DNA from: Podarcis liolepis
Lineage: Eukaryota
Assembly (NCBI GenBank): GCA_965112155.1
Contig: OZ218098.1
Length of the DNA stretch: 64,000 bases
Direction: 5' to 3' (one strand)
This document shows, piece after piece, positions 10,562 through 50,895 of this stretch (the stretch's first letter is position 1; each line of letters begins with the position of its first letter). The position numbers were made by a program, and so were the translations under genes. The notes below the pieces were generated by a model. It was not told the origin of the DNA. It worked only from the letters and a program-made list of their open reading frames with translations, and did no database searches.

Positions 10562-10892
10562 TTAAATAATCCCAAGAGGATCTGCTTGCAACTGGGGTTG
10601 TATCAACTGAGGTTGTAGAGGTGGCGGTAACTGTAGTGGTATGATGGGATCCACCATCTGCACTGGGTTGGAAGGTGGAGGCTGGTGTGCCACACTGTCA
10701 GAGGTTTCTAAAATTTCTCCATTATAGAAGAAAAACTGGCACTGTTGAATGAATGTCTCTATTACGGATTGAAGGATCTTGGTGGTTGATAGAAACTCTC
10801 TGTTTTCAAAATCAGGTCTCATTAATGTTGGCCAGAAACAGATAGATAAGTTATCTGCAGTCATAAGATTGGTTCTGCTTTGTTGACTAACC
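10562..10892 (-). CDS. ARHGAP5: ARHGAP5 last coding exon ([26 protein letters not shown]...LQADPLGII*)
   Basis: Acceptor is ttgttgtag|GGTT. Encodes the GAP C-terminal [16 protein letters not shown] motif and Pro/Gln-rich tail. TAA is at 10564-10562. Confidence 0.97.
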
Positions 10893-11674: not shown

Positions 11675-11780
11675 CTGTTCAGATGAGTTATTACATATCT
11701 GAAGACATCGTAGTTCACTGGATGGAATTTCTTCACAATTTCTTTTAATTCATAGAGCCTCTCTGTTTTATCAAGGATTT
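11675..11780 (-). CDS. ARHGAP5: ARHGAP5 exon 6 (106 nt; KILDKTERLYELKEIVKKFHPVNYDVFRYVITHLNR)
   Basis: Boundaries are tcttctgcag|AA...AACAG|gtattt. In frame with both neighbours. Confidence 0.97.
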
Positions 11781-13891: not shown

Positions 13892-14023
13892 TTGATGCTT
13901 CAACTAATTCTGGATGTAGTGAATAAGGAATTAAAGGATCTGGTAGATCTGCAAAGAAAGCTTTCAGAGCTCCTGCCACAGCATTTACTGTCACATCCAT
14001 AGATTCCAGACTGATATTATGAT
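13892..14023 (-). CDS. ARHGAP5: ARHGAP5 exon 5 (132 nt; [44 protein letters not shown])
   Basis: Boundaries are ttttacag|AT...TCAA|gtaagc. Contains the Rho[22 protein letters not shown] motif. Confidence 0.97.
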
Positions 14024-15847
14024 CTGTAAAACAACACAAAACAGTATTTTATTAATGAGAGCCATAACTACACATTTCTAAAAATGACGTACTGAACTAT
14101 AAATACAAATCAGCCATTGACCACTCAATTTAAATTACCCTGGAATAATGGGCTATTGTAGACTTGTCTGCCATAAGCACTGATCATAATTATCAATATT
14201 ATAAATCATCTATTCAGATGTTATGAAAATGACAGACTGCCCTGGGATTTTATACACTCACACACCAACCATAATCAGCATTATCAGAATTTATCCCCTT
14301 TCACAGTTAGGAATGGGGACTATATATTCTTATACCATGCTATCAGCAGCCAAGATTATTCCTCACAAGAGAACTGTACAGACTAAGGCTGAAATCCAAC
14401 ATTGTGCAAGCAGACATCTGCTTAAGCAATGGTACTTTGCATATAGATTGCTGTTCCACAACCCTACTGGATCTAATTTTGTGGGGAGGGGGCATGGGAG
14501 GGAGGCAGAGAGGAACACTAACTCCCATCACATGAGCAGAAGTTCATTTGCTGAGGCATGGACACCACTGGATGTTAGCCTAATTTATTTCCAAAGTTAC
14601 ACAATTTATTTATTGTGCAAGTAAACTCTAACCTGGTACTTGAGAAGAAAAACCTTGTGTTAAGGTAGCAATGGATTATTTATCACATCATCCACCTTCA
14701 CACTTAAAACTGGTTAAGGAGGAGGAACCCACATATTCCAAAGTTATAGGATAACTTTTAAATAAATAATAAAGTATACAGGACTAAAGCACTGCTTTCT
14801 CTCCAATTCAAACCTTCTCCTTTGCAAGCATTACAAAAAGTATATTTGTGCTAAATTACAAAAAAAATCACTTTTTCAAAATGTGACACTAAGTTACAAT
14901 TTTTTTTATACCAGAACTGTTGCATCAGCAAAGTAAAATATTTAGGATACACATATTTGCAGGAGAGTTAAACCACAAACCTGTGCATCATTAGCAGAAG
15001 TGCAAAGTTTTGAGACAACATGAAATAATTAAATTTTTTTGGTAAAATGGAAAATCTGGAATAAATTACTGATTTACTCATCAAATCAGGAGTCCACAAA
15101 TTAAATGTCCCCAACGGCCAACTATGATTTGTATTAACTAATAACTCTGCCCCACTCCATATTCAAGGGTGGAAGTTTTGACTGAAACACTTAAATAAAG
15201 CTCAAAACAAATCTAATGTCATGTTAAGTTTTGTAGGCACTCGGAAGCAGAAAGTCTTCCTAATCTTCTGAGCTCAGTAACAGAGAACAATGGTTTGAAT
15301 GCAGAAGGTTCCATGCCCAATTTCTGGCATTTTGAGAGGCCTGGGGAAAACTCCTGTCTGAAAGTTTGGAAATCTCATTTCCAAAGAATGAATCCGCTTC
15401 ACTGTTAGAACCAAATTGACAGTTGTTACAGTAAAATTATGCTTTACTACCTGTACAGCTCAGTTACAGATCAACCACTCAGAATTTTGGGGGAACAAGT
15501 AGGAAACGGAAGGGGCGGGGTTTTATTTAGATGTTGTTGTTTTTGATAAATTATTGTGACTTTCAAATTGAATTGGCTAATTTTACTGTAATCAACTTTA
15601 CTGTAATCAACTTGTAGAAAAGCAGGCTACTGATCTAAACAGTAAATGAACAAATTATACAATTACCACACTGCTTACCACTGCATGTTCTCAATACATT
15701 AACACGCAAATCATAATTTGTACTTCATATAACTATACAAATGCACACTCTCCAGCTTCTATGATTATCTGTTTGGAATGCAAAAATTAGACTGCAGGGT
15801 TTGATAGACCAAAAATTATTTGTGATATGCATCATATCTCCCATTAC

Positions 15848-15925
15848 CTTGATCAAATTGCTTCTGAATGTTGTCTTGATCAGTTTTATTCCCACTAACA
15901 CGATAGAGACCTTCAGTACATAGAC
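15848..15925 (-). CDS. ARHGAP5: ARHGAP5 exon 4 (78 nt; GLCTEGLYRVSGNKTDQDNIQKQFDQ, contains catalytic arginine finger)
   Basis: Boundaries are ccccaaag|GT...CAAG|gtaatg. GLYRVSG RhoGAP motif is present, with the Arg codon at 15900-15902. Confidence 0.97.
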
Positions 15926-17767
15926 CTTTGGGGGTGGAAAGCAAATGTCACATGGTTATATTTTGCAAACGAAAAGTTATTATTTAAGCATAAGCAAAAT
16001 TCGTATTAAAATATCTATCACACTCTTGAACATAAGTTCAACAAGTAGCCTGCCGAATGCTTTACTAGACGGCCTCTGCTATAGAGCAGCCTTCCTATTC
16101 TGATACAGAGGAGGGGTCCATTTGGTTATTATGCCAGATGTAGATGAGAGATAGAACACTCCATCCCTCTTAGAGCACTCTATGCCTGTATGAAACTCCA
16201 TCTTCATATTTGCATGTAATTCCTTGTTGCCTGCAGCTAACAGGCTAGGGCTTAAAAAAAGATTTGCACTATTGATTTCTTCAATTAATATGGGGTGATT
16301 TCTTGTTTATTTGCAATCCTAAGAATGCTTTAAGGAAAGCAACCCTCAGCTTCAATTCAGCGGGCATTACTTCAGAGTAAACAATGGTTGTAAAAATAGT
16401 AAGCTAATTCTAATTCATAGTGTGATTAATCATCACTCTTTTAAAAACGAAACATGCACTACTACTTGCTCTCACAAAGTTTTATATTTTAATCACAATT
16501 AAAAAAGGAAATGCATACATAATTACATAATCTTACATAATCTTAACAACTGTTATGAATAAGCCCTCATGCCAATGTATGTGATCTGAATTCCCATAAT
16601 CCCTCTTCACTTCTTCAATCCCACCCACACCCTCACTCATATAAACCTAGTCAAAGGTTTGATACAAGAAAAAATAATTGTCAGCATTTACTGGAATCTA
16701 CAAAGTCTTTTTAGCAAAAACTTAACTAGCACTGACAGGTGCTGGCATTGCAATGTCCCACAAGCAACACTCTTGTCACATGATTTGGTCTTCTCCTAAA
16801 GCCACAGTCTTTTGGTCAGAGGTCAGCAGCCACATAAATATGGCTTTTGATACCTCCTTGCAAATTACAGATGTTAATGTTCTACTGAATCATGTGTACC
16901 AGTCCTTTGGATCCTGACAAACAGACAATATGGTGGCTAAATGTCTAATGCTTCAATACTGGAAGAAGTCACAGATAGTGTCTATGAGAAAGTGGTCTTC
17001 TATAAACATAAGATGGGAAATTTTCTGATATCTGAAATGTCTGAGCACCGTGTTGGTCCGGACCACCAACTTTTCTGCCCCACACTTCACATTCTCTCCC
17101 TTGTACACAAATAACATGTTGTATTGGTTTATAATGATTTTGTTTGTCTTGTTTAACTGTATTTGGTTATGCGTCATTTTGAAAAATTCTATTAATTAGA
17201 AGAACTACTAAAAGAATAAGCCACCTCACTTTACAAATGCTCCTAACTCAACACATATCATATGCACTGAATCACAAAAGGAAATACAAGCTTCATGGGG
17301 AAGAAAAGCTGTCAAAAACTGAACACAGGATAGATAAAAAGATGCTTTTTAAAAAAGACTTTTCTTAAATAATTACTAGGTGAAATATTCCAGATATAAA
17401 AATGTTTGCCAGATAGTTAACCTCTAATTTGAGTCACAGTATTACAGAACTGTAGAGTTGGAAAGGATCCCAATGATCATCTAGTCTAACCCCTGAGAGT
17501 GGAGGGAACTCCTAGCATTGGAAGGAGATGGGGGGCATTCCACTGAACAAGACTAAATTCTTCCACAAATGGAATGCATTACTTGGTATATCATCCTTAG
17601 AAAACTTCAGAATTGGTAGCTATTTAAACGTTAGCTATTATTGCAAGTGTAATAATATAAATGCTAGTTTTCATGCATTCTGAATGTTATTAAAATTACT
17701 GACTCTACTTAAAAATAAAACAATGGAGATAAAGGTTGCTGTTAAAACACTGCTACATAAGTTAGTA

Positions 17768-18127
17768 AAAAGGTAAAGGTAAAGGGACCCCTGACCATTA
17801 GGTCCAGTTGTGACTGACTCTGGGGTTGCAGCACTCATCTCGCTTTATTGGCCGAGGGAGCCAGCGTACAGCTTCCAGGTCATATGGCCAGCATGACTAA
17901 GCCACTTCTGGAGAACCAGAGCAGCGCATGGAAACACCGCTTACTTTCCTGCCAGAGCGGTACCTATTTATCTACTTGCACTTTGACATGCTTTTGAACT
18001 GCTAGGTTGGCAGGAGCAGGGACCGAGCAACGGGAGCTCACCCCGTCAAGGGGATTCGAACTGCCAACCTTCTGATCAGCAAGTCCTAGGCTCTGTGGTT
18101 TAACCCACAGCGCCACCCGCGTCCCCC
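17768..18127 (-). mobile_element. Sauria SINE, full length (intron 3)
   Basis: tRNA-like head (gggacgcgggtggcgc..., box B gttcgaatcc) and (ACCTTT)n tail. 13-bp TSD acataagttagta at 17755-17767 and 18128-18140. Confidence 0.93.
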
Positions 18128-18754
18128 ACATAAGTTAGTATATGCTATCATATTGAAAAAGTTTGCAAGGAAATCTTGTCCAAAACCAACAAAGTGCGAT
18201 CAGCACCTAAGCAGCTTGAATTCTCAAAATCTAAATTAGCACCTGGGTCAATTGATGACTACAGCTTAATCCCAAATAAAAACTGATCCTACAGAACACT
18301 GTTAGAATCACTGGGTTACTTTTTGCTCAGGCCTAGAAGCCAACAAACTGAGTCCTGGGCTGTATAAACCATGCTACCTATGAGTAGTGTAATATATTAC
18401 ATACAACAAGTGTACAATCTTTGCTCCTGTACACAGAAATAGTTGAGCTGCCCACTCATTCAGTTATTCAAACGTAACATTTAACGAGTGCACAATGCAG
18501 CGTACTCAGGTTTACTGCCAGCTAAAGGAAACTATTTCAGCAACACTTATTAAACGAGTCATTGAAGCAATTCCCTTTTACTGGCAACAAGGCAAGACAT
18601 GCTGGGTCTGCTTTACTTCCTAAAACAGTTTCCTACCAAGGTTTACAATCAATGGAATGAGCTGTGACTGAAAGAGGAATGTTAAGTTTGTTCATTTTGG
18701 CCTCTGTTATTCTTAGAGAAGGTATTGTTTAATTTGATGTAGACATTCACATCA

Positions 18755-18830
18755 CAACTCCATACATGTTTACTCTGAAGTAAGTCCTATTGAGTTCAAT
18801 GAGACTTACTTCTAGGTAGGTCTGTATACT
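18755..18830. repeat. Short palindromic dispersed repeat (core agtaagtcccattga.ttcaatgggacttact); other copies near 7350-7495 and 44095-44260
   Basis: The self-complementary core recurs at several places in the window. Probably an old MITE family. Confidence 0.6.
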
Positions 18831-19577
18831 GGTATCCATAAATGTATTGAATGTTTATATATGAAATAAATGGGGGTTGGGAAGGAACAAAATCTAAGCC
18901 ACTTAAAAGATTATTTCAGCTGATTTTTTTCAAACCTGCAGCACCTGCTTCAGTCTTGAAGGCATTGTACAGTACTGATATAATTTATTAAGCAGGGTTG
19001 CACAAAAGGGGAATGCTGTTTGTGCAATGGGGCTTGCCACCCCTTCTCCAACTTTAGCATAATGTCCGTCCGTCCCCGAGCCTTTCTTAGGTTTTGGGGA
19101 ATACTCGGGAAAGATCTGGGCTGCAGCACAAAGGGTGGGGGAAGCTGCTGCTTCATGAAGTGGGGCTGAATTGCATTATTTTTGTTGTTTTTCAATGGAA
19201 ATGCATGCAGAGCAGGATCAAAAAGTTCATCAGTAACATCTCTTCATTTCACATTATTTAGCTTTTATATAGCACTTTAGAACAAAGGTAGGCAGAAGAT
19301 AGAAATCACACTAATCCTATAGATCCCAATTCAAGTTTCGTTGGAATCTTGCATGCTTACATTTGTATTAACAACATGTTTTAAAAGTGATTTTTCTGTA
19401 TGTTAGATTTCAGTTTTTTCAGCAAACCTAAGTCTGTGGTTGAGGCCAACTGAGTAAAGTCAGGGAAATGTAGTCAGGTAGGGAGAGGAGACCACAAGAC
19501 AACAGAGAAAAGACCATCAGCAGCATGTACAGGAGTAGAAGAAATCTGCTCTCCTCCCAGTTCCATATTCCAGGCGT

Positions 19578-20450
19578 CATAAGAACATTAGACGATCCTG
19601 CTGGATGAGGCCCATGGCCCATCCAGTTTAACATCCTGCTCTCACAGTGGCCAACCAGATGCCTAAGGGAAGCATACAAGTGGGACAGAAGCACACTGCC
19701 ACCAATAGTGGAGGCAAAAAGTATCAGATTTAGTTCAGGTTATTTTTCATGAATTTGTCTTATCCTCTTTTAAAGTCATCCACGCTGGTGACCATCACTG
19801 CCCCCAGTAGAGCTAATGTCCATAATGTACTGCATAAGAAATGTACTGCATTTAATATTCTCTATCCACTTTCCCTACGCCATGCATAATTTTACCCACT
19901 GCTGCTCCAATCAAACCCTTGATCATTTTGGTTGGCCTTTTCTGAACCTTTTCCAAATGTACAATATCCAGTTTGTGTTGAGGCAACTAGAACTGTACAC
20001 AGTATTCTAAACAGTCGCATAGTAGGTTTGCACAACAGCATTGTTATATTGGCAGTTTTATTTTCAATTCCTTTCCTAAGATCCCTAGCATCGAATTTGT
20101 CATTTTTTACATCTGTTGCACACTGGGTGAACATCTTCATAAAGCTATCTACTCTAACCCCAAAGTCCTGTCCAGAGTCAATATGATTTCAGACCCCATG
20201 AGCGTATATGTGAAATTAAGGGGTTGTTGTTTTTTAAGTCCAGATATGTATCACTTTACACTTGTTTACAATAAATTGCATTTCCCATTTTACCACCCAT
20301 TCCCTGAGTTTGGAGCACTCCACGATCTTTATTTTTGTTTTAGTGACCCTAAAATTGTTTTAGTGACAATTCAGTAGCATTAGCAAACTTGGCTACGACA
20401 TTACTTACCCCAACTCTACAATATTTATGAACAAATTAAAAAGCACTGAT
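19578..20450 (-). mobile_element. CR1 LINE 3' fragment (intron 3)
   Basis: RKGIENKTANITMLL peptide. CR1-type 3' terminus (cataagaac... on plus). Confidence 0.85.
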
Positions 20451-20615
20451 CCTTCAAGGGTTTGCTTTGGTAAATATGTGAAAGTATACAGTCCTCAGCA
20501 CACACTTGTTATTTCTGTTACCACATAGTATAAAATGATGAGAAGCTAACAAGACTTTTATAGTTAGCTACCAAGAAATAGTAAAATGTTATTGATGCTC
20601 CAACTTGTGTCCTAC

Positions 20616-20763
20616 CTGTGTCTTCAATGAAATCCACACACTTCTCAACAAAGAGTGGTATAGGTTTTTCAGGTGTAACCAGATCCTGCAGGGGCATTCC
20701 AAAGTAATTACTTTCCCAATTTCTACGAGTTGGTGGATTAAATGTCTTGGTTTTCTTTTTTTG
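20616..20763 (-). CDS. ARHGAP5: ARHGAP5 exon 3 (148 nt; [49 protein letters not shown], start of RhoGAP domain)
   Basis: Boundaries are cttgtag|CAA...ACAG|gtagga. Phase 0 in, phase 1 out. Translation matches the p190-B GAP N-terminus. Confidence 0.97.
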
Positions 20764-21651
20764 CTACAAGAAAACAACAGCATTCTTAGCCAAGTATGTC
20801 ACTAATGAAAGTAAAAAATTAATAATATCTACATAAAATCATACCTGTAACAAAAGAATCTTAGTAACAGAACTAATTTTGAATATATTAATTTATAATT
20901 ATTCAATAAAGAGAGCAAACAAGCTTTTCAACATTGTTAAAATCTTTCTGCACTCAAATTCATATAACATGATAAAAAGTTAAGCAACATATGGGAGGCT
21001 ATCTTTGATTGTGTTGTTTTCTGAAATTCCTTTTTTTTAAAAGCTCCTTTGTAATATATGGAATATTACCTAGATATATATATATATATACATGGAAAGA
21101 CTGGTAAATTTCTATATTATGGTTCAGTGTAAGTATTTTCTTCTTTTAATAAGAAAACAATAAAACAATAAAGGGTAAATTAAATGTCCAAGAGTAGGCA
21201 GAAATGCCCCCACCCTCTAGCTGCAGGCATCTCATGACTGTCTTATCTAAGTTGCTGGGCAACCTAGCAGGTAACACTAGGTAGAAAAGGGCTCAATCTC
21301 AGATTACAGCATTCATTGTTGAACAGTACAGGAGAATCTGTGCGAAACGTGGAGAAGACTATAGGAACAATCCTGTGAAAATGTGGAACACTTTGTGAAG
21401 AGCTCGCTTGAGGGAAGCTGGATAACTTCCAAGACTTCTGGGCTTGGAGAACTCTGGCACTTGCAGGATTCTGTTAGAAACTGGACTTTGCACTTGCTAC
21501 GTGGACTTTGTTTCACTAAGGACTTTGTAAACTAGAACCATCTCTGGGCTCAGAGAGTGAAAACATCTTATAGCAACTGCAAATAGTGTGTGTATATCAT
21601 GTGCATGTGTGTGTTTGCCCAGTAAAAGCAATCTCAATTATACAGTTTCTT

Positions 21652-22299
21652 CCTGTGCTGAGCCTAACTGCTCAACTGAACATCCACAACACATAGCACT
21701 ATATGGTTTGGAATACCATATTAAACTTAAGGGTTTATACAACTGTGGCTTAAATATCAAGTCGCAATCCATTTTTTGCCAGTTTCCATTTCCAACTGAA
21801 GCCCAACAGGCCACTTCTTAAGATGTTTATGACATATCTTTCCTTCTGTGGCATGCTCTGGCATGGCCTTTCAGGACACAAACAAGCAACAGTGGGGAAT
21901 CTCCCCTTGTGCAAGCAGAACTTCACTTGTGTGCCTTTGGATCCAAGCTCCTATTTCTCAAGACCTACAATGCTGAGCCTGTGCTGAGCCTAACTGCTCA
22001 ACTGAACATCCACAACACATAGCACTATATGGTTTGGAATACCATATTAAACTTAAGGGTTTATACAACTGTGGCTTAAATATCAAGTCGCAATCCATTT
22101 TTTGCCAGTTTCCATTTCCAACTGAAGCCCAACAGGCCACTTCTTAAGATGTTTATGACATATCTTTCCTTCTGTGGCATGCTCTGGCATGGCCTTTCAG
22201 GACACAAACAAGCAACAGTGGGGAATCTCCCCTTGTGCAAGCAGAACTTCACTTGTGTGCCTTTGGATCCAAGCTCCTATTTCTCAAGACCTACAATGC
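21652..22299 (+). repeat. Direct tandem duplication, 2 x 322 bp (intron 2)
   Basis: 21652-21973 and 21978-22299 read identical by eye and are separated by 4 nt (tgag). Confidence 0.97.
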
Positions 22300-24196
22300 A
22301 AAACACTAAATAGTATGTTTCTATGAGGTGTGATAGCTCCATTCAGACAGGAAATACTTTAAACTGGTGAAGATTAACTATGGTTCCACCTTTTTTCTTT
22401 CCCACACTGTACAAAATTAAGTGTCCTCAAATAAATTAACAAAATGACAAGACAATATTAAGCTGTTTATAGTTAACCACAATGATAGCTATTTTAGAGC
22501 AAAAAACTATTTACAAAATTTCCTGAGTTCTCTATAATAATACTGTAAAGCAAGCCAACACTATATCCATTGCACAGACCTGAGGTTAATAAATGATGCC
22601 TTGCATTTAGACCAACATGCTATTCACCAGCTCACATTGGCTTTTTAAAATGTGAAAGTTTACAAGGAGTAGTAATACACCAGGTTGACTCCATTTCTTA
22701 GGCAGCCAATAACCAGTGGCTGCTTTTTCCACTGCTTGAGCTGAAGCAATTTCTGCAAGTAGTGTAACAGCTGTAAAGGTTAATTTCTTGCTTACTCAGT
22801 ATTTTATACAGATGTCCTTCTAGTATCTCCTACTCTATCAATGATGCCCATAAAACTTTGCCCAAATAACTTCTTTTATATAAAGATATAATCAGTACCA
22901 AGACATAGCAATTCTATAAAGCAATTCTAAAATCTGACAGTTTGCCTGCACTATATATACTTTTAGAATTATTACCCTAAACAATATTTAATCTTTTTTA
23001 AACTGCTTCTCCGTGCACAGGAAATATTAGAAAAACCAGAACTAATCCCCACGAAAGTCCTTCAGGGCCAATATCTTTTCAAAACTAACCATACAAGCTA
23101 CTAAAACATGTAGAAAGCTGGCAAAACGTTTTATCTGCAATGCACACTTTTATTCAGTAAAGTTCTTCAACTGCCTGTGTCAAATAATTATCTGAAGAGA
23201 AAGCTAAATAGTGTCATAGGCAGGTTTTGATGCAGGGGTTCCTCCCTGCACAGTACTCTTTTGCATACAACACTCTTTCCAAAAGTGCAATCACAGAAGA
23301 GTTTCACAAGTTGATTGCCCAAAGATTGCACAACAACCTACTATGCCCAATGACAATATACATCTATATAACAACACTGTATCCTGGTTATGTATAAGAC
23401 TCACAGCTGGCCACTGCCAGGACAACGCAACACTGGACTAGATCTGATCTAACACAGCACAAGACCATAAAGCAATAGCTGATAATTCACAAATAACTGT
23501 ATTACAATTTGAAGGGAACAATTTCTCCTCCCACCCTTTCCACATTCAGCACACAAAGTTCACAAAACAGTTATTTCAAATGTTGACCTCACTGACATCT
23601 GAAACGCTACATATTTATTATCTTTACAATGGCCAGTAATAAAGCACTGACTATGCTAAACCTGCTGTGCACTGAATACATGCCACTTTCTAATTAAAAA
23701 ACAAATCAAAAACCTGAGCCCAACAACAGCAGTGCATTCACCAATAGGAGTAACATTATCCTAGTCACTAAAATATGCCAGTCTGAATCGCCTTCTATAT
23801 AAATTTGTCAAATCTAACCAGAAATATAGCTGACATTCCTAGAAAGATTCTGCGATATGAAACAAAGGCATTGGGTTGTAATCAAAACTGCATGAGCTGA
23901 AACAATCTATCCCTCCTCCCCACTCCCCTTTATACCTCTGAAAAGCTTCTTCAGGCATCAAGGGGACCTACCAAACAAAGAGCTCTGAATCATCCAAGGA
24001 AGAGAAGGGAAATCACCCCAAATCAGACTGAGGAATCTTGTGTCCCTTTGATGCAAGATCCCTCCATCCAATTTTCCTTGGGGCCTTTTCTCAGCCAGAC
24101 AATGCAATCAACATTTGATAAGGCCAACTTGCACAACTCCAAAAAGAACTTAATGCATAGTTAAAATAAAAAAAGTTAGTTTAAAAAATGTCTTAC

Positions 24197-27100
24197 TTTT
24201 TTGTCTTCTTTTACTTTCTGAGTTTTCTTCTTCATCTTTTTGTCATCCAACTCTTGATCTGATGTAATAGCAGGGTTATCAATGCCACCTTTCCATGTTT
24301 CCACTGGGGACAGAAGGGGATCTTCTTCACTGCCACGATGTCTTCCTTTTCTTTTAGTTTTAGATGTTGTAAAAGCTTCATCATCACTTGCATCTGAATG
24401 TGCTCTCCTATAATAAGATTTGGCTTTGATGAACAGTGTTTTAGATTTGTATTTGTATTTTGAAGGTCTTCTTTCACCGTGGGTCTTTGACATTCTGTCA
24501 GGAAATCCATTTTCTTCATCTCCTTGGGTATTATTTATAGTAAATGAGTTTCGAATTTTAATCATGCGATTCTGACTATCATCTGGAATTGCGTAGATAT
24601 CATCAGTAACACCTCTGTGCTTGAAAATGGTGTCTATAGGTTCTGCATAATTATCAGATTGATCTAGATCATCAGATGGTGCCAGAGTTGTTCTAGTTTT
24701 TCTTGGTTTGCCAATACCTGCCTCAATAGTTTTTAACAGGTTTGGATCTAGTTTTTTCACATTGGGCTTGAGTGCAACTGGTTTTGGCTTTATTGGAGGA
24801 GGCACTTTATGGTTGCGTTCATGATCGTGACAGTTAAGTGGTGTGCTATGAACAGGGTATTCATTACCTTCCAAATCGAATCGATCTTTTGGGATAAGCT
24901 GTACATCATCCCCCATAGGGCTGTAAGGAGGTGGGGCTTCAGTATCATCTTCTGAATCCGGATAGTAATTGTACGTAAGAGCACCTCCTCTGGGAGAATG
25001 CAGGAAAACATCCTCACTTGTATGTGTTGCCTCTCTTGTACTATCAGACATATAAGAATTTTCAATCATGTTTTTCTTCTCTAAAACATCACTAAAGAAC
25101 AAGGTGAAAACCTCAGTCTGACGATGATATTGAGACAAAGAATACAGAGCTGTAAATTTAGCTGTAATCTCAGTAGCTATATGTTCACCTTCCGTCATTA
25201 ATTCTTTGATAGCCTCAATCTCAAAAAAGTCTGCCTGACTATCAGTAACAGCCACCAATTGGACAGGAATCGTATCTTGTACTTCTGAAAGAAATGCTCG
25301 AAGCATTCCCATAGATGCCTTCCGTTTAGCAGAGTAAACTAGTATATACCCATGAACAAGTTCATCTTTTCTTACACCGATTGAAGAATGATATGATAAT
25401 ATTGTTATCTGTATTCGCCTCCGTTTTTCACCTATAATTTTATCCAGCATGAGGGAATTATTCTGGCCAGCCTGAGCAGCACTACAGGAATGAGAGTCAA
25501 GAAAGGGTGAAAGAATAAGATCTATACTGAATGGATCTCCACACATGGCACACATGACAATTCTCAAATCAGCTTCCGAAAGGTCTTTAATTGTAGGAGC
25601 GGGACTTACAACATCAAAATTGTGTTTAACTGCTTCCAAAACTCCCCGCAAAGCTTGTTTTATTTGAGCCTCATTAAATTTGCGTGGGTAAGTACCAGCA
25701 GGCACATCTATAAAAGGACACTGCAACTTGTTTGCCAATTGCTGTCCTTGGTGTCTCAGAATCGGCAAGTGCTTGCTAGCACTGTCTCTTTGATTAGCCA
25801 GTATTAATGTAAATGGAAGACTGGCCATATATTTGTCTCTTCTTATCTGAGATGCTTCGGTCCTGATTTTAGTGATCGACTCTCCAATAAAAGCGAGTGA
25901 TTCAATTGAATTAAACACACAGAAACATCCATGTGGTTTGAAGGCAGAAGCCCATAAGTGACTTAGAAGATAAGGTGACTTTGCATCAACTGGCCTAAGA
26001 TCAAGTTCATATATCTTTCCATCTAAGGCATACTCGTCATCCGTGGATTGAGTCCGAATCTCATTTGCCAGCTCTTGCGCCAGACCATCTTTACCCAAAA
26101 TGAAAATATTAACTTTATCAATATTGGCACTATCGTGATACAAATTTAAGCGGCCGTGGTCCAATTGCAAGAGACTTCTGGCAAGCAACTGTTCTACTTT
26201 AATGTCCATACAGTTTTGGCCACTGAGACAGGTTTCTTTAGTGGGATGATACACAAACCCTATGTGTTTTAATAGAAGAGATTCTCTATCAGGTGCAAGT
26301 TTCTGTAAAGCTTTGTATCTAGGCTCTTCACTCAGAACTGCATGAATTTCACTCATTTTATCAGAACTAGGTGTTGCATTCAAATCCAGGTCATAAAACA
26401 GTTCTGAATGCTCAAAAAGCATTTCCTGAAATTCCTCTTTGGCTTTTTCAACAATTTCCCGTTGATGTCTACTATATACTTCTCTACTATCTGCCTCTGT
26501 AATATATTTAAAAGCTTCATCCTCCATTACAAAACACATAACTTCTTCCCAGGGTTGCCCAGGAGAAATGAACTGTATTTTTTCAAGTGTTTTTTTGAAC
26601 TTCTCCTTCATTTCAACTCTCCTTTTTTCTGATATTAGATGCTGCACGTGGTTTTGATAGACTTTTTCCGCTTCTAGCGTGCTCAAAAGGTCAAATGGAA
26701 TTCTCCTGTCATTCACTTTATCTATGTGATCAGTTTCATCCCAGGGTGTTTTCTCCAGCACCACAAAACATAGTTGGAAATCTGGCCTTTTTTCCATTAA
26801 TTTCAAAGCTTCAGACCAGCTCAAATGCTCAATCTCTTCAAGATTTGACAGAAGTGTGTTAAAAGCTCTTGGTAATGTATTGATGTATTCATCTCTTCTT
26901 TTTCTTATATGCTCTTGCTTAAGCTGCTCTATGTGTTTTGAAAATGTATTTTTGGCCTTTTTTGTTCCCTCTAAATTAATGTATTCTTCATAATCTGGGT
27001 GATTTTTCAGTTTATTACTAACCGTTTTCCAAGTGGCATGATAGTCTCTCACAGTCTGAACAAGTTTCTCAAATTTATCCGTTGAAGTCACAACAAGTTG

Positions 27101-27898
27101 CCTCTGTGTTTTATAGGCATCCAGATAGGGAATTATTTTAGGCTTACCCCGGGTTTTATCCATCATTTGTACCAGTGCAGTAAAACACGTCTCAACATTG
27201 ACATTGAATCTTGCTGATGTTTCTACTACCAGAAGGTTCTTCTTATTTGAAGCAAATGCCTGAACCTCTCGTAAATAGTGTTCCACACATTCATCACATT
27301 TAGTTGCTGCTATTATTATAGGCTTTTTAGATTTTGAAAGCTGAACATAGAGGTTATTCACAAATTTAAGTTGGTCATCAAACTTCCTATTGCATCCTTG
27401 ACTTACATCAATGCATAATAAAAATCCATCAATGTTTAGCTTCCCTTCAGGCATTTGCTTTTGCTCAAAGTCTTGCTCCAATCCAAGCTGATCTGTGCAA
27501 ATATACATAAGTTTTTCTGCTGACTGCAATTTGGTTGCAGCTGCACGCTTTATATATGGTTGTAAGTTCGTACTCCGATGAGGCAGAAAAGTCTGATCAT
27601 CAATGAACTCAGTCTGTTCAATAACATGAATCTTGCAATCTATTCCATCCTCTCCACATTGTATTACGTCACCCCAGTACAAAAAGTGATCATTATTAAC
27701 AACTCGTCCACCAAAGTCAATTGTGCTAAGCACAGAGGTATGTTCGGGGTAATATTCATCTGCTTTTGAACGCACAAATCTATTGCACAAACACGATTTC
27801 CCAACTCCACAGTTCCCCTTATCCTTTTCAGTCCCCGAAAGTCCAATCACACTAATAGCATAGGAAGGGGGACGAGGCTCTTTGTTCTTTGCCATCAT
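24197..27898 (-). CDS. ARHGAP5: ARHGAP5 exon 2 coding part (aa 1-1234: N-terminal pseudo-GTPase, FF domains, pG1/pG2 pseudo-GTPases, linker)
   Basis: ORF starts MMAKNKEPRPPSY..., recognisably p190-B. Donor is AAA|gtaaga at 24197/24196. The ORF-track tail VRHFLN* is intron read-through. Confidence 0.98.
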
Positions 27899-28071
27899 AG
27901 TGTTCTTCTCATCCTTCTGTAGTTACCAACACAACCAGCTGTAGTGTTCATTCTTAAAAGTGCTTCTACACACTAAAAATTTATCTCCAATTTTTTAAAG
28001 GTATTTTCAGTTCTTCTTGGATTCTCATGCTTGCAATAAACTTATATGTTCAGATCAAGTGGTGCATATTT
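27899..28071 (-). other. ARHGAP5: ARHGAP5 exon 2, 5' UTR part (173 nt)
   Basis: Acceptor tttcttctttccctttcag|AAATATG with a strong polypyrimidine tract at 28072-28090. Confidence 0.85.
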
Positions 28072-29529
28072 CTGAAAGGGAAAGAAGAAACACTCTGTTA
28101 ATTACAGTTACCTATAGGTCTACTTTCAATGTTTCAATAAATTCAAACACACACACCTGATGCTTTTAACCAAGTTAGATATATAAAAATGGGTATGTAG
28201 CTCACATGTCCACACTTAAATGCACCTTACATGCATTTAGTGCTCTTATTTTAAGCACATTTACATAAAGAACATGTTCCATCAACATCAATGGCACTTG
28301 CTACCAGTTAAGATCCCTGATCAAACAAAGGCAATTCAAGGAAACATACATGCAATTATATGTGGTCCAGTGTACTGGGGTCCAAGTAGGATTCTGCTGC
28401 TCAGAAAGAGCAGTCAATACTCATCAGTGCACTTATAATGCTTATACAATAATAACATGAACCCTATCCTCCAATAATTAGATAACCAATGTAAAGCTAA
28501 CCATCCACTATAAACTTGTCTGGGAAGATAGTCACATAAAGCAGAATGAATGCAGACAGTTTCAACACACAAAGCTCTTTCTACTGCAATATTGCACTGA
28601 TTTCAACTGAACTTATTTCTAATTAACGGCATTTAGAAACGGAACCTAAAATATGTTTAAAACGCATATGTTTCAGCATGGGTGATTTTTCTCTCCTTTC
28701 CAAACAATGAGGTTTCAAAAGGCAGAAAGTTAGCAAAATAAAATTATTATTTTTTAAAAAAATACACTTCAAACAGAAACCTGGGGAATATATGAATAAT
28801 TACAAACATTTAATAAATCTAACTTCCAAGTGTTACCAAATAAACAGTATGATGACCAATGACATCATTCGATCAAAGTATAAACCTCCACAGGAAGTGT
28901 GTGAGGGGAATGGAGTTGCAGTGATAACCTCCTAGCAGTGGTGCTACATTAACAGGGCAGGGAAACGCAGACAGGGCAGGAAAACGCGGACACAAGGTTG
29001 GGGGAACTCTGGGTGGAGATGGTGATACCATAAACCTTGTTAACACCTCAGCCCACCTACTGCCATTCTACTCCCATCCCCATGTGCCTCTGCAAGACCT
29101 CACATAACTGACTCCATAAATAACAGATTATGAAAAGATTCTGATGTTTATGGAATGAAGATGCTAATATTGATAATGATATCCAATACCTCAGTGTGTA
29201 TATTCATCTAAGTGGTAACTGTTTCCACATACTGGCACAATCCACAACGTGTGTTTACACAGGGGCCCCTTGTCAACAATGACATTTGAGAAGCTCTACT
29301 GTTCATTGAATTGCTTCTCCAAACTATATTTAAGGTAATAATCAGATTGTCAGTCCTTTCCCCCATAAATTCAGAAGATATTACAATTTTCTGTAAATAG
29401 TTCTCAAGAAATGTTTTCTCTTTCCTGCTCCTCTACCCTTAAAAAGAAAAGTTAACTAATATACAATGTAGAGAATAATTAATATATAGGATGCTTATAT
29501 GAATTAGCAATAAATATTTTCCATATCAC

Positions 29530-29896
29530 AGGGACGCAGGTGGCGCTGTGGGTTAAACCACAGAGCCTAGGATTTGCTGATCAGAAGGTCGGAGGTTCGA
29601 ATCCCCGCAACGGGGTGAGCTCCCGTTGCTCGGTCCCTGCTCCTGACAACCTAGCAGTTCAAAAGCATGTCAAAGTGCAAGTAGATAAATAGGGACCGCT
29701 CTGGTGGGAAGGTAAACGGCGTTTCCGTGTGCTGCTCTGGTTCACCAGAAGCGGCTTAGTCATGCTGGCCACATGACCTGGAAGCTGTCTGAGGACAAAC
29801 GCTGGCTCCCTCGGCCTATAGAGTGAGATGAGCACGAAACCCCAGAGTCGGTCACGACTGGACCTAATGGTCAGGGATCCCTTTACCTTTACCTTT
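29530..29896 (+). mobile_element. Sauria SINE, full length (intron 1)
   Basis: Same head, body and (ACCTTT)n tail. TSD ccatatcac on both sides. Confidence 0.93.
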
Positions 29897-32759
29897 CCAT
29901 ATCACTGAAAACAATTACAAGGAAGTATTTATAATAGCACAGAGCAGCAATTTTTAAAACTATTGTACTGTAGACCACTGTCCAAGTTTGCTTGCTCTTA
30001 CTAATCACAGAACCTATGTAATGGCACTTGACAACTATTCCAAGCTTCTTCCTAATTAAAATTCAGGCTCCTCTGCATTCTGATGCAGCTGTACTGCACT
30101 CTAAATGCAAAAGAATGAACACAAAGGGGACAAGAAAAGGGGTGAAATTATTCTAAGCAGAGGATAGGTACTGTTAGTGACAGAGAAAGGGACAAATCTG
30201 AGAAGTTTTAGCATTCAAAACATTACTCAATGTAGATTCCTATAATACAGCCATAGCACTGAAGGTTGAATGAGAGACTGAAGGACAGTGACTGCTCCCC
30301 AAGGCAGCTGCAAAGAGAGCCACTATTCAACTTTTACTAACCCTGCTGAGGGCCAACTAGCTCATTCTTTTATTAAAACTGATCATTCATGAATCAATTA
30401 TGGAAACCCATACCCAAACAATCTGTTCTATCTGCTGATTTTATTATAATGCACCATAGATAAGAGAATGAATGAACAACCAAGCACTGCTTAATATATC
30501 AGTGGGTCCAATGGACCCCAGTTCCCATGAGCAAGATTCCATTCACACGGCACTCCAACTGGAGTGAGGAATGGGAGGTACACCTTGCATATTCCTCTTT
30601 CCCCCTAGAGTCCTCTGTATCTCCTGAAAATCTTCTCCGGAAGGTTTTGAACCACTCCTGAAAAGTGTGAGGAGTGGTGCCAGTATGTTGAGGGGAGGGG
30701 GCTACTGGTCCCTTCCATTTGCAAAGAGCAACCCTAAATCCAACCCTCTATGCTTAGCAGCTTTGAGCGACCTTAGAAGTAGGAAAGCAGGACAGAAATG
30801 TTGAAAATAGAATCTTCATGTGTGACTTTTAATTTTTTTAAAAAAATGCTGAGTATCCACATACGATAGGATCCAGAAAAGTACACGCAGAGCTCTTCCA
30901 ATCCTTTCCCTGTTGTAGACTCCCATGTTTCACAGCTATCTGAATTTAAGAATCAGTGGACCTTCTGGACAGAACATGGGATGCTGCAGTGGAAGGAAGG
31001 GAATCAGCAGAATTCAAGAGTCCCCCTGCACAAGTAGAAATACTTTTCTGATCACACATGGTACCTCAGCATCCAACCCAAGGAGTTGCTGTTTTTTAAG
31101 TTTAATTTAGTACATGTGTTAATTACTTATAGTGGACATAAGCAAAGATAAGTCGTAAGATTGAAACACCAAATTGGGGTTTTAATTTGGCAACCTGACT
31201 CCAATAATATACGGTACCTATGCATATATGCCATAAACAAAAACTTGGAGCAAGTCTCTAATTGACTGAGAGCATACACCCATCAAAACCAATGTCCTAA
31301 ATTGTAAATATTTTGCCTGCAATACAATAAAGCTAGAGTCAAGAATTCAATATGTATCTCAAGTTTTCTTTAATTTCACCACAGCAATTCCCACTGCCAA
31401 GGCAGGAAAATATTGCTCAGTTTAAAAAGCATCTTGCCTCTGTGGCTGCATAAACCACTGCACAGAAAACATACACTAATGAGTACTCAGTGCTCATCTG
31501 CACAAACATGTAACTTCTTTTGATTGGGGCCTTTATGTGACCCACATTTTGGTTCATTCTCTCCTCTCCTAAAATATACTGAGTCACTGGCATAATAATA
31601 GTTTGCAATCAAGACTATCCTTTGTATTAATGATATACATGGTTAATTTTAATCTAGTGCCTCAGCAGTTGTCTACTGGGGTACTCAAAGGCTTTTTTTC
31701 TTCTGAAACAAATATTTGGAGAACAGTTACTGTTCTGCTTGAATCTACATTTGAAATACTTTTTTTCCTAGAGAAACTTGCTTGATATTGTGTTTTCATG
31801 GTTCAGAGACTAATTGCCATATTTGTAGTGAGGAAGGACAGATGTAGTTTCCTGCGTGACAGATGGCCTGGTGACCACGGAGGACTGTTTTGTCTTCCTC
31901 TGCAGAATGGAGTGTTTTTACTGAAACATATTCCTCAGCCTCCAGCAAGGCATAATTTACTCATTCCTGCTCTCCTGTTGTAGCACACAATCTGGATTAT
32001 GTTGGTTAATCTGCTCAGAATATCTGAAAGCATTCCAGTCTGGCACAGTTGTGATATGCAGTTTTCTTCTTAACCCTCTGACCTTGAAAGCTTAAGGGAT
32101 GCTCCATATATACCACCCCAAACTTGGTAACATAAAAAATGCAAATATCCTTTAACTATCACACATGATTTGCTCCTTTAGCAAGCATCCTCTTTGGCCA
32201 GTCTAGTGTGATGCAGCTGCTACTCCCTTTCATTTCTCAATTTGTTTGGACCTTGCCCTCTATACACATGTTGTGGGGAGAACCCAGAGGCACTGGGCAT
32301 AAAGAAGAGGCAGTAGATGTATCTGCCTCACATCCAGTACTGTAAAGAAGCAAGCTGGGACACACAACCATCACAAATTTCCTTATTCTTAATCAGAAGA
32401 ACTGACACTCAAGTAGTCAGTGGCAGCTGTCTCACATACAGTGTTCTATTTACAGAACAGGGTACAACTAAAGCTGCAACTCATGTCCTTATTTTTTATA
32501 TCTCAAGGACAAGGCCCAGAAGAACTGAGAATAAGGAAATGAGTGCCAGCTGAATCTGCCTCACAATTACTGCTGGGCTCCTGAGGGATTATCAGGTAGT
32601 TAGAATGGCTGCCCTTGCTACTTGCCAACACCAGTCCCCTGTGCTGTTTGCCAATGCTATTGGTCACCCATCAGGGCCTAACCAAGATCCAGGGGAGACT
32701 TTCTTGGAAGAAGAAACATGGAACTCCATGGAGAAATCCAGCACAGCTAGGGACTAGGA

Positions 32760-32895
32760 CAGGCATAGGCAAACTCTGCCCTCTAGATGTTTTGGGACTA
32801 CATCTCCCATCATCCCTAGCTAACAGGACCAGGGGTCAGGGATGTTGGGAATTGTAGTCCCAAAACATCTGGAGGGCCGAGTTTGCCTATGCCTG
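32760..32895. mobile_element. Palindromic hAT-type MITE (136 bp)
   Basis: TIR caggcataggcaaactc/gagtttgcctatgcctg. 8-bp TSD gactagga. Confidence 0.92.
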
Positions 32896-33184
32896 GACTA
32901 GGATGAGCCCCACAGTCATAAGAGAGCCCAAAATTTCAAGTACTATGGACATCTCTCCTGGGCTTCTGGCAACCCCTCCAATCACATCCAAATCCTGCCT
33001 TTGATTCTCCACCACAAGCTGAACAGCAAAGTCAGCAGTGGACCCAATGCGAAGTCCAGAGTAAGAGTGCACATTTGACTGCCAGGAGGAGGGTCAAAGA
33101 AGATTTACCTGAGAGCAATAATCTAGCAGAAGTCTGTGAAAACGGACTGGTAATGAGGATGTAAAATATAATGAGGAAATGAGA

Positions 33185-43203: not shown

Positions 43204-43557
43204 GGGTCACAGGTGGCGCTGTGGGTTAAACCACAGAGCCTAGGACTTGCCGATCAGAAGGTCGGTGGTTCGAATCCCTGTGACGGGGTGAGCTCCCGTT
43301 GCTCGGTCCCAGCTCCTGCCAACCTAGCAGTTCGAAAGCACATCAAAGTGCAAGTAGATAAATAGGAACCGCTCTGGCGGGAAGGTAAACGGTGTTTCCG
43401 TATGCTGCTCTGGTTCGCCTGAAGCGGCTTAGTCATGCTGGCCACATGACCCAGAAGCTGTCTGCGAACAAACGCCGGTCTCTCGGCCCATAGAGCGAGA
43501 TGAGCGCCGCAACCCCAGAGTCGGTCACGACTGGACCTAATGATGAGGGGTCCCTTT
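43204..43557 (+). mobile_element. Sauria SINE, full length (intron 1)
   Basis: Same family. TSD tagaactcacag at 43193-43204 and 43557-43568. Confidence 0.92.
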
Positions 43558-43683
43558 AGAACTCACAGAAGGAAAATCTTGTACAAAGAAAAATGCTAAA
43601 ATGGTCTTGCAAGTTGTAAATAGCATTTGCAAACCAATCCACAAATGAAGGCTGAATACCTGGATTAAGCTTTAAATCATACT

Positions 43684-43719: not shown

Positions 43720-45842
43720 AAAACAACTATTTCCTCTAAAAATGTGAAATCTAATGTTGCCCAGGTAGATCACTAATGCAGCGAGACCTCTTCCTCTCCC
43801 CAACAGCCCCACTTTCTTCACTCTGCTCCTCAATTCTGGAAGTGGATTTTGATAGTGAGCAGAGGGCTGCAGGAGGGAGGGGAGGAATAGGTCCTCTTGC
43901 ACAAGCGGAAGTCCACTCTGCTGGTGAATGAACACGATTAATTATCACTCATAATAACCATTTACTTAGCTCATTACATGCCAAACAGCTAATGATTTTT
44001 AACATTAAGTTAGAATTAACTAGTGAAGCTTAGAATTAACTAGTGTTTACTCCAAATTTGGGGCATATGACAGAGTAGCATTTTAAGAGTTGAAGGCTAC
44101 AAACCTACACATACTTGCCTGAAAGTAAGTCCCATTGAATTTAGGGTGACTTCTGAGTAAACATTACAGGATTGCATTGCAAGGGGGCAATCCCAAGCAT
44201 TCTTAAGATTTTTTTAACTCAATGGGACTTTGTAGAAACCATGCTTAGGCCTGCACTATAAGTGATGTATTATGGCACTTTCACAGGCAATAGTCTTTAT
44301 AAGGTACTCACAACGAACTTTACCAATTAAAAACTTGTGGACTAAAATCGTTAATATTCTGAAACAAATATATACTACATAAAAGAAAATAAATACATAT
44401 ACTCGATTGTAAAAAAATACATAGTTGTCCATGCCAGAGAGATTCTATTATGAACTCTCCATTCATTTTTAAATGGTGATCACAAATATGAATTCCATAA
44501 TTCCTTTCAATGAAAACTGTCTAAACAGGCAGCTAAAATGAATGTGCAATTGATCCACAAATGTTTGGATCAATTGTACTGCCTTTTTTATTGTGCAGTG
44601 TAGACTTAAGAAATCTCTGCCAATTGCAGTATCTAAGCAAGAGGGAAAATACACTAATTATCTCCAAAAGCCTAAACTTAACATGCACACCCACCCACTG
44701 GCCTATTTTAGTCTGGATTTAAAACATTTCCCACCTACTTTTCGGGCAAATCTGCGGCACTGGAGTTGCTGAAAAACCTCATGCACAAAAGGACATATGG
44801 GAAGGTTTCCACACTTTCCCCTTCTCTTTACCCTCCCACTGAAGTTATTGTGCATCTTTCCCACGTCGAACTGTCACTCCCAGACTCCCATCTAGAGCTT
44901 TTCCTTGACAAGAGGAAATCCGGGGTGGGGGTTGGGGTTTTTTTTTTGTTTTTTGTTTTTTACAGAGGCAAGAAAGAACACGAAAGAACTGCAACCAGCA
45001 ACACACTCAGCCCCCGCCTCCTACCGTCGTTTCCAAAAGTCCTCCTATCCACCCTATGGAGTTGGGAAGAGGAGCAGGCCACTCGCGCCTGAGAGGAAAG
45101 TTTGCTATGACGAGATGGGGGGGGGAGGAAGAGGGAGAAAGAGAGAGACGACCAGAAAGAAGAGAAACGGGGGGGTGGGGTGCTGGAGAGAAAGGCAAGA
45201 ACGGAAGACCTACGGTTATTATTATTTTTAAAAAAGCAGAAATAATGGAAGGGGGGGTCAGACAGAGAAAGAAAGGAGGTGTTAGGTTGCCCCTTTCCTT
45301 GCCGCCTCATCTCCTCCTCCTCCCTCGCTGGGGGGGCCGTGACCAGCTGGCAGCCGCCGCCGCCGCCGCCACCAGAGCCTGGTAGAGCAGGCTCCGATCC
45401 TCCCCGCCGGCTCAGGCCTTCATCACCTGTCTGGGACCAAAGCAAGCAAGCAAGCAGGGGAGGCGTCCGGCCATTTCCCCTCCCCCTCCTCCTCCGCGGG
45501 GTGTGTAGGTATGGAGCAGACTCGGACGAGGCAGGAAGGAAGGAAGCGAGGAAGGAGAAAAGAAAAGGCAGCTCCGGTCTTCCCAGTTCACTCACTCATT
45601 CACTCACTCACTCAGCAGTTCCTGCTGCTGCTGCTGCTGGCGGCGGCCCCATCCCTCCTCGGAACTGGCGGCAGCCTTCACCTCTCCGGCGGCTGCAGCA
45701 GCAGCAGTAGCAACCGCCCCGACTCCCGAGCCCTAGCGCTGCTGCTGGCGGCGACGGTGCGGCAGCTGATGGGGCTGGGTGTAGTTGTGTGTGGGGAGGG
45801 GGGGTGGGAGTTGGGAAGGAGGAGCGGTTTCTTCCTCCTCAC

Positions 45843-46100
45843 CTCAGTCTCCGGCTCTCCCGCGGCACCATTCCCGGGACTCTCGCTCAGCGCCGGCGGC
45901 TCGTCGTCGTCGTCCCTTTCCCGGACCCGCAGCTCCCTCAGAAGAACTCCCGGCGGCCTGGCCCCATCTCTCCTCCTCCTCTTTCCTCCTCCCTCCCTCC
46001 CTCCCCGGTGATCTGGGCTTAGTAATGGCGGCGGCCGAGCCTCCCCGGCACTGGCTTCGCCGACGGAGCCGCTCGCCCGCCCGCTCCCTCGCGCTTACGC
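45843..46100 (-). other. ARHGAP5: Candidate non-coding exon 1 (3' boundary 45843; TSS approximate)
   Basis: Donor GACTGAG|gtgagg at 45843/45842 inside the CpG island. Confidence 0.6.
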
Positions 46101-46163
46101 TCCGCCGCCGCCCCCCTCCTTTCCTCGCTCCCTCGTTTCCCCCGCCCCCACCTCTAACTTTAC

Positions 46164-46330
46164 CTCAGCAGCTTTCCCCTGCCTTTCCCTCCCTCCCCCC
46201 TCCTCCCAGTTCTCGCCCCGCTGCCGCGGCTCAGCGCGCGCGCCCCCGAGGCCTTACCCGGGCTTTTGCGCGTGCGCGGCAGAAGGACCTTGTGTAGAGA
46301 GAGACGTTTCCGTTCCTTCCACGGGGCGGA
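46164..46330 (-). other. ARHGAP5: Candidate alternative upstream first exon
   Basis: Donor GCTGAG|gtaaag at 46164/46163. The 5' end is unknown. Confidence 0.35.
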
Positions 46331-47059
46331 CGTCGCGAGGCTCCTCCGGTGAAGCCCTGCCCACGCGCCGCCGCCGCCGCCATGCGCGCGACACAGCAGC
46401 CTCTCGGGCGCGAGCCTGGCCGGGTTGTATGTGTGTGTGTGTGTTTCTCTGTGTTTTCCTTCTTCCCTTTCCCTTCTGCTGGCCGAAAGCGCCGTCAGGA
46501 GGAGGAGGAAGGGAGAAAGGAGGCGGTCCATAGTCCCCGCCTCAGCCCCTGGGATTTTTAAAGGAGTGTGTGGAAGTGAAGAAGGAACATTTTGGGACAT
46601 GCACACACACCGCGCGCGCGGTTTATGCCCCTAGCCGTGGTCCTTGGAAAACCTGTGGTGGCACCCTCGGCTCTTTTTAAGGGAAGGAGTGGGCGAGCGC
46701 ATCGCCTGCGAAATGTGCCCGCGACTGAAGAGAGAAAAATCCAAGTGGGCAGTTAACTAAAACTCCATACTTGAAACTCCAGTTGCTCCGAATTAATACC
46801 TTTTTTATTATTATTAATCTAGCCATCCACCCAAGGGTTCAGGACAGCAACTGCAACGAGAGAAGTGACTTAAACAAGGCTAGCCGATAAACTGTAACCA
46901 AAATGGAAAGGGGAGTTGAACCTTCCCATCTGAGCTGAGCTCGAGAAAGGTTAGCAACAAGTGTATGAGGACTTTGGGCAAAGTGCCCTCTGGCATCTCC
47001 CCTCCTTTATGGGGGGGGGTGGCACATTAACCTGGCAGGAAGAGGAGGTGGAGTCAGCC

Positions 47060-49629: not shown

Positions 49630-50895
49630 TTGGGATCCATGCTTTTTAGCTTGCTTATTCACAATCTAGAGCTAGAGATGACTAGTGATGTAGCCAAGCT
49701 TGCTGGTGAAGAACTCCATAAAGTTCTCTTAGTAAAGTGGTAAATGCAATTCAATGTAAGCAAGTGAAAAGGGTGCACAATGCAATAGGGCAAAAAAATA
49801 AATAAAAAATAAATAAACATACACTACTTGGATGTGAAGGCTGACTAGGAAAAAGATTGTCGGGTCATAGAAGATAGATAAATGAAGATGCCAACCCAGT
49901 GTGTGGCAGCTTTGAAAAAGTATAATGTCGTGCTAGGGATCATTAGGAAAGGGATTGAAAATAAAACTGCCTATGGTAAGTTAAAGATAAAAGACCCCGG
50001 ATGGTTAAGTCCAGTCAAAGGTGACTGGTGTGCGGTGCTTATCTCGCTTCTCAGGCCGAGGGATCTGGCACTTGTCCACATACAGCTTTCTGGGTCACGT
50101 GGCCAGCATGACTCAACCACCTCTGGCACAATGGGACACTGTGACAAGTGCTAGAGCACACAAAACACCGTTTACCTTTCTGCCGCAGCAGTACCTATTT
50201 ATCTACTCGCACTGTTGTGCTTTCGAACTGCCAGGTTGGCAGAAGCTGGGACAGAGCAATGGGAGATCACCCTGTTGTGTGGATTCAAACCTCAGTGGTT
50301 TAGACCACAGCACCACCCGCATCCCCATAAAACTACCTATATCATAACACCGTTATCTATGGTGCAGCTCCACTTGGAATACTGTATGCAGTTCTGGTCT
50401 CCTCAAAAAATATTGTAGAGTCAGAAAAGGTTCAGAAAAGGGCAAGCTAAATGATCATGAGACAGGAACAATTCAATTATAAGGAAAGGTTGTGGCATTT
50501 AGTTTAGAGGGAAAAGTAAGATGATACAGGTGTACAAGATTTTACATGTTGTGGAAAAAGTACATAGGGACCCCTCATAATACTAAGAAAAAGCTGCCAA
50601 TAAAGCTGAATGTTGGCTGATTCAGTACTTCGTACAGCTTGAAATTTGTTCCCATAAGATATGATTGCCACCAACTTGGTTTTAAAAGGAAATTAGACCA
50701 ATTTGTAGAGGATAAGGCTATCCATGATTAGTGTCCATCGCTTGTCAGAGGTAGTATGTCTCTGAATAGCAGTAGCTGGCTATCATAAAAGGGGAGCGTG
50801 GTTACACTCAGGCCCTGCTTGGCGGCTTCTGGTTGGACACTGCAAGAATAGAATACTGGACTAGATAGGCCTTTGATCTGACCCAGCAGAGCTCC
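49630..50895 (+). mobile_element. CR1 LINE 3' fragment, interrupted by a SINE
   Basis: Degenerate ORF2 C-terminal peptides VLGIIRKGIENKTA and LHLEYCMQFWSP. The 3' end is similar to the other CR1 copies. Confidence 0.85.
49975..50326 (-). mobile_element. Older Sauria SINE nested inside a CR1 fragment
   Basis: Diverged Sauria body (tacctatttatctactcgca..., ttcgaactgccaggttggcag). TSD ataaaact(g/a)cctat at 49961-49974 and 50327-50340. Confidence 0.85.

Follow-up and report, generated by a model that had tools for sequence, protein, structure and literature searches.

The stretch of Podarcis liolepis DNA considered here (contig OZ218098.1 of assembly GCA_965112155.1; 64,000 nucleotides, called the window below) carries on its minus strand a gene that is, judged from its sequence, ARHGAP5, and two short interspersed elements (SINEs) lie in opposite orientation on either side of its exons 2 and 3. 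A first-pass annotation had proposed that this pair opens a lizard-specific route to a circular ARHGAP5 RNA. The best matches of a 1248-codon frame in the window are p190 structures, and its pseudoGTPase part matches ARHGAP5 in particular; in a genome search, the p190 FF domain was present at two places. Exon lengths were sought using human values, and this placed exon 2 at 24197..28071 (3875 nt, with an AUG at 27898), exon 3 at 20616..20763 (148 nt), exon 4 at 15848..15925 (78 nt), exon 5 at 13892..14023 (132 nt), exon 6 at 11675..11780 (106 nt) and the coding part of exon 7 at 10565..10891, all on the minus strand. Exon 1 presumably lies together with the promoter in a CpG island at 45001..47000. 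With the limit of intron 1 assumed at 45430, the introns that flank exons 2 and 3 measure about 17.4 kb (intron 1) and about 4.7 kb (intron 3). Back-splicing from the predicted donor at 20616 to the predicted acceptor at 28071 would yield a circle of 3875+148 = 4023 nt; with the two exons mapped, this size and the predicted junction agree with those given in the first-pass annotation. From the AUG at 27898, this circle would have a 1288-codon frame stopping five residues past the junction; such a junction-crossing frame is a consequence of the exon structure alone.

Three young SINE copies are located in the introns of the gene. Copy A (17768..18127, minus strand) is full length and sense to the gene, and the position of exon 4 puts it within intron 3. 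Copy B (29530..29896, plus strand), likewise full length, is in intron 1 and antisense to the gene, whereas copy C (43204..43558, plus strand) lies in distal intron 1, on the gene side of the CpG island, in the same orientation as B. All three have a (ACCTTT)n tail, which is short in C, and a target-site duplication beginning with T (13 bp for A, 12 bp each for B and C). Since these duplications differ among the copies, A and B must have inserted separately. In the self-comparison of the window, A and B aligned in inverted orientation with 89.1% identity over 367 columns (29 mismatches and 11 gap columns, among them a 10-nt stretch that A lacks; longest perfect run 47 nt). The distance to the nearest splice site of the bracketed exons is 2.49 kb for A (exon 3 donor) and 1.46 kb for B (exon 2 acceptor), and neither the self-comparison nor a family search found a Sauria copy in intron 2. 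Thus, the geometry described earlier was right: a full-length inverted pair of about 90% identity with only exons 2 and 3 between its arms and an intron 2 free of the family. The same applies to the role given to copy C, which cannot compete within intron 1 and is, with 86.8% identity in inverted orientation, a second possible partner for A. Absent from that account was a fourth Sauria-like copy, D, which is old and diverged (70-73%) and lies at about 49972..50293 on the minus strand, upstream of the CpG island and presumably outside the transcript.

The young copies, 355-367 nt long, bear A-box-like and B-box-like RNA polymerase III motifs in a tRNA-like head, as seen by eye in the alignment; neither ARAGORN nor Rfam gave an intact tRNA. 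The target-site duplications of 12-13 bp with T as the first base, found in 3/3 young copies, and the tail correspond to the signature given for Sauria SINEs (PMC13295347). A genome search returned 5146 candidate copies, and the 40 that were scored showed 91-94% identity excluding the self match. The sampled density described below extrapolates to about 63,000-88,000 family copies per genome, within the range listed for Squam1 in lacertids (65,094-130,894; PMC10670947 Table 1). The likeness to Sauria/Squam1 SINEs is one of features, i.e. a length of about 360 nt, the tRNA-like head, the (ACCTTT)n tail, the T-starting duplications and the lacertid-range copy number, and the assignment as Sauria/Squam1-type was made on these. 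A search for Bov-B 3' ends in 1.7 Mb of loci, carried out without a Bov-B reference, gave 122 hits, of which just one was restricted to the 3' part, and this was a copy cut by the locus edge. According to the lacertid survey, about 12,000-18,000 Squam1 loci are shared between genera versus 52,000-78,000 that differ, and about half of the loci differ between two Podarcis species (PMC10670947, Table 2 for the genera); teiids are described as being without the family (PMC10702118). The insertions of A and B are therefore likely to be narrower in spread than the term 'lizard-specific' had implied, and this part of the earlier proposal is not supported.

Pairing of A with B in the ARHGAP5 pre-mRNA is predicted by folding. 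On the transcribed strand, the two arms are expected to form a duplex of 339 pairs with -683 kcal/mol, compared to about -135 kcal/mol for each arm alone, and 11 of the 29 mismatches would be G-U pairs. A sensitive intron-by-intron search found no inverted competitor for either arm in the intron that holds it or in intron 2: other inverted repeats do exist within intron 1, none of them involving A or B, and no inverted repeat between introns 1 and 2 that would favour a circle of exon 2 alone was found. Counts of QKI and CA-rich motifs gave nothing notable within 2 kb in the flanks. The likeness of A and B is within the range of the family and bears no mark of special matching. Among 52 sampled copies, 17 are at least 88.5% identical to A and only three to B, five share a perfect run of at least 47 with A, and eight would form a stronger duplex with A than the one calculated for B. 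Moreover, A, B and C diverge by 6.1-6.5% from the majority state of the family (median of the other copies, 7.1%). We also considered, and rejected, that gene conversion or selection had acted between the two copies: they share seven non-majority states, which is at the 90th percentile of background pairs, and have diverged to an ordinary degree. Introns 1 and 3 also hold two weak inverted matches, both of 76%, which pair 39455-39530 with 19597-19672 and 44106-44164 with 18766-18828. Elsewhere in the genome, two young Sauria copies lie inverted only about 200 nt apart (L061, G000:C6:20007422-20008339), so the genome tolerates tight inverted pairs.

The frequency of such pairs was estimated from ten 100-kb blocks at arbitrary places, eight of them on contigs C2-C9 and two beside the window (1,000,000 bases). 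These blocks contain 40 young full-length copies under a strict rule or 56 under a looser one. Under the strict rule, 16/40 copies belong to an inverted pair with a span of no more than 12.13 kb; there are 10 (strict) or 21 (loose) such pairs, and extrapolation gives about 16,000-33,000 equally tight pairs per genome. When the intron template of the gene was slid along the sequence, an intron 1 x intron 3 pair resulted in 4.0-7.1% of 5200 overlapping placements, and Poisson simulation gave 5.1-9.4%; given any cross-intron pair, it bracketed exons 2 and 3 in 35-38% of the cases. The first-pass annotation had itself named a simulation of this kind among the checks on its proposal. Now that it has been run, the figures of 4-9% per gene of such shape and of 16,000-33,000 equally tight pairs per genome speak against the layout being unexpected. 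The placement of the pair exceeds chance at most weakly: its closeness is uncommon for any one gene, but the locus was chosen because the pair had been seen.

As controls we used 24 other large or long-intron exons of the same genome, i.e. ARHGAP35, four SLC8, two FOXO, four NFI and thirteen ephrin-receptor loci; two of four FOXO matches and two of 15 ephrin-domain matches are outside the set. These loci were picked by Pfam accessions; for SLC8A1 and ARHGAP35, the status as sources of circular RNAs (circRNAs) was taken from published data (PMC8633312; PMC8261482). A Sauria pair within 10 kb is present at 3/24 loci, all three in SINE-dense stretches. Per locus, 3.5% would be expected at average density, or 8.8% if there is one copy per 15 kb, and the probability of at least three in 24, calculated by hand, is about 0.05 and 0.35, respectively. 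In the 40 kb examined at the likely SLC8A1 gene, no young pair straddles the exon; a chicken SLC8A1 circle is among the matches listed in PMC8633312. An SLC8-family locus (L117-L120, G000:C7:88907001-88947000) is rich in young repeats that belong to more than one family, and many inverted pairs of 94-99% surround its large exon.

Circles from the exons in question have been described in other species. Human circARHGAP5 (hsa_circ_0031584) consists of exons 2-3 and has 4033 nt (PMC10067438), thus coming from the same gene and the same exons as the 4023 nt predicted for the lizard, and circArhgap5 forms are reported from mouse and human adipocytes (PMC7349386). In the paralog, human circARHGAP35 comprises the same exon pair and is reported to encode 1289 amino acids (PMC8261482), a long junction-crossing frame like the 1288 codons predicted for lizard ARHGAP5. 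The earlier statement that exon 2-3 circles are known for mammalian ARHGAP5 and ARHGAP35 is borne out by these two reports, both on human, and its premise that inverted SINE pairs in flanking introns promote back-splicing is in line with work in which close inverted SINEs are an established driver (PMC7819710; PMC8516420). Not supported, however, is the premise that Alus supply the pairing for ARHGAP5 in primates: human circARHGAP5 is presented as a representative of the distal-Alu long-intron circRNAs, a class called Alu-independent, SFPQ binds its flanks, and its level drops upon SFPQ knockdown (PMC7819710). The human circle thus offers no proximal Alu role that a lizard SINE could replace, and a demonstrated, SFPQ-dependent circle in human differs from a predicted one with close inverted SINEs in the lizard. 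Similarly, human circARHGAP35 is driven by HNRNPL, which binds in introns 1 and 3, and translation of this circle is reported (PMC8261482), whereas the lizard frame is a prediction. In a chicken dataset, an ARHGAP5 circle spanning 3897 nt is among the matches listed (PMC8633312 Tables S11 and S13), and we read this span as exon 2 alone. With circRNAs driven by inverted repeats, the lizard locus has in common the reverse-complementary SINEs in both flanking introns, a few kb from the splice sites; the SINE family is a different one, and intron 1 has about 17 kb. At circRNA loci that mammals share, Gruhl et al. 2021 report repeats that are young and species-specific, see no sign that pairing has been selected for, and interpret the pattern as convergence and by-product (PMC8516420). 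Their pattern resembles ours in that a lineage-specific young SINE pair surrounds exons that circularise in other species; their data cover five mammals with RNase R treatment, ours the genomic sequence around a squamate SINE pair. The suggestion that intronic SINEs may form circles was already made in a lacertid genome paper (PMC9498476), and no study on squamate circARHGAP5 or on circles driven by Sauria SINEs was among the matches listed in our literature searches.

The inverted pair is most likely an ordinary, known layout and a chance modifier of circle formation. We put the probability at roughly 0.6 that A and B are two neutral insertions around exons that were already circularisable, and that they at most tune the circle. 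Two separate insertions of an abundant Sauria/Squam1-type SINE would have landed inverted in introns 1 and 3, likely by chance, at a gene whose circle is likely made anyway through the long first intron and the large AUG-bearing exon 2. In part of the nascent transcripts, the arms may pair, and the predicted duplex of about 340 pairs would bring the donor of exon 3 close to the acceptor of exon 2. Some adenosine-to-inosine (A-to-I) editing of this duplex would be expected, and back-splicing might be raised or shifted toward the 4023-nt exon 2-3 form at the expense of the form with exon 2 only. The pair would then be a neutral by-product limited to the genus or species, neither required nor selected. 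As thousands of such pairs are estimated for the genome, a tuning effect is likely the most that this one has.

Several observations weigh against so modest a role. First, a Sauria pair as close as A and B is expected in only 0.2-1.4% under the null, an equally close pair of any repeat family occurred in 0.7% of 5780 placements, and at none of the 24 control loci is a pair of Sauria copies found at 3.95 kb or closer. Second, the clean layout, with no copy in intron 2 and no inverted Sauria competitor within either intron, is found in 2.7-4.3% in the models. Third, ARHGAP35 has the same arrangement: its exons 2-3 lie between two inverted copies of 93% identity over 328 nt, one of them antisense and about 5.4 kb away from exon 2 in intron 1, the other sense and about 3.9 kb away from exon 3 in intron 3, and intron 2 holds none (the copies are at G000:C7:86221456-86221783, plus strand, in L106, and at G000:C7:86194178-86194530, minus strand, in L103). 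This is the best point for the idea of the first-pass annotation, and the chance of the layout is 3.1% at average density and 7.4% at the local density of eight young copies in 120 kb. Finally, the chicken circle does not prove independence from repeats; CR1 elements are reported to form duplexes in chicken (PMC5625713).

Among the alternatives, the most probable one is that the pair is without effect, which we consider unlikely: intron 1 might be removed before intron 3 has been made, ADAR or helicases might unwind the duplex, or there might be no exon 2-3 circle at all. The transcript between the arms is about 11.4 kb long, and the chicken circle appears to contain exon 2 only (PMC8633312). 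Lizard SINEs are A-to-I edited, and in anole brain 8,663 hyper-edited sites in SINEs are given versus more than 40,000 in Penelope elements (PMC5625713). On the other hand, the arms are long and strongly complementary, and the same source describes pre-mRNA pairing between neighbouring inverted repeats as general across animals. A decidedly doubtful alternative is the one first proposed, that the exon 2-3 circle of this lineage is driven mainly by the SINE pair. The arms are close, clean and 89% identical, the folding energy of their duplex far exceeds that of the single arms, their closeness is rare under the null, the flanking introns are just about 17 kb and 4.7 kb long, and close inverted SINEs are known to act in this way. 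Yet the human ortholog circle is Alu-distal and SFPQ-dependent, an ARHGAP5 circle is listed for chicken, and the locus was singled out post hoc among the estimated 16,000-33,000 such pairs. It seems quite improbable that young SINEs became inverted independently at both p190 RhoGAP paralogs, so that what was ancestrally an exon-2 circle became a SINE-driven circle of exons 2-3 encoding a 1288-residue GAP-less p190B. Hardly credible, finally, is selection having kept inverted Sauria pairs at exons 2-3 of both paralogs for circles encoding GAP-less p190 proteins, as the shared layout and the similar frames in the lizard prediction and the human report might suggest, given that local SINE density lifts the chance of the ARHGAP35 layout, that ARHGAP35 is 1/24 controls and the three with a pair within 10 kb are all SINE-dense, that human circARHGAP35 depends on HNRNPL, that the frame follows from exon structure, and that the copies are no less decayed than their family.

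Although we favour the view of a chance modifier, the alternatives would have consequences of their own. Should the circle be driven by the pair, squamates would join mammals in having young species-specific SINEs that feed shared circRNA loci, and a single locus would give a protein-dependent long-intron circle in human and a repeat-dependent one in the lizard. If both paralogs were affected as outlined above, related lizards with and without the insertions would provide a natural experiment in which the influence of repeats on circRNA output could be followed. Since Squam1 insertions often differ between related lacertids, the effect is testable without engineering.

The window holds further repeats that are separate from the SINE pair. 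A GC-rich element at about 36943-37432, presumably hAT-like, carries terminal inverted repeats plus a target-site duplication of 8 bp and resembles a small CpG island; in view of these transposon-like features, we rejected the possibility of an alternative promoter at 36900-37400. Intron 1 has a 110-nt inverted repeat (34839-34947 and 37493-37602; 96% identical, about 2.5 kb apart). In a genome search this repeat matched these two places only; it is thus not an obvious transposon end and possibly marks the edges of a small inversion. A small element at 35145-35481, which we take to be Tc1/mariner-like, has 24-nt terminal inverted repeats and internal repeats. Intron 1 also contains a palindromic hairpin of about 150 nt (32754-32901) that resembles a miniature inverted-repeat transposable element, and a related copy is found outside the gene, on its upstream side (58739-58851). 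In intron 2, a perfect tandem duplication with a 326-bp unit (21652-22299), the sole such place in a genome search, is either a very recent event or an assembly artefact.

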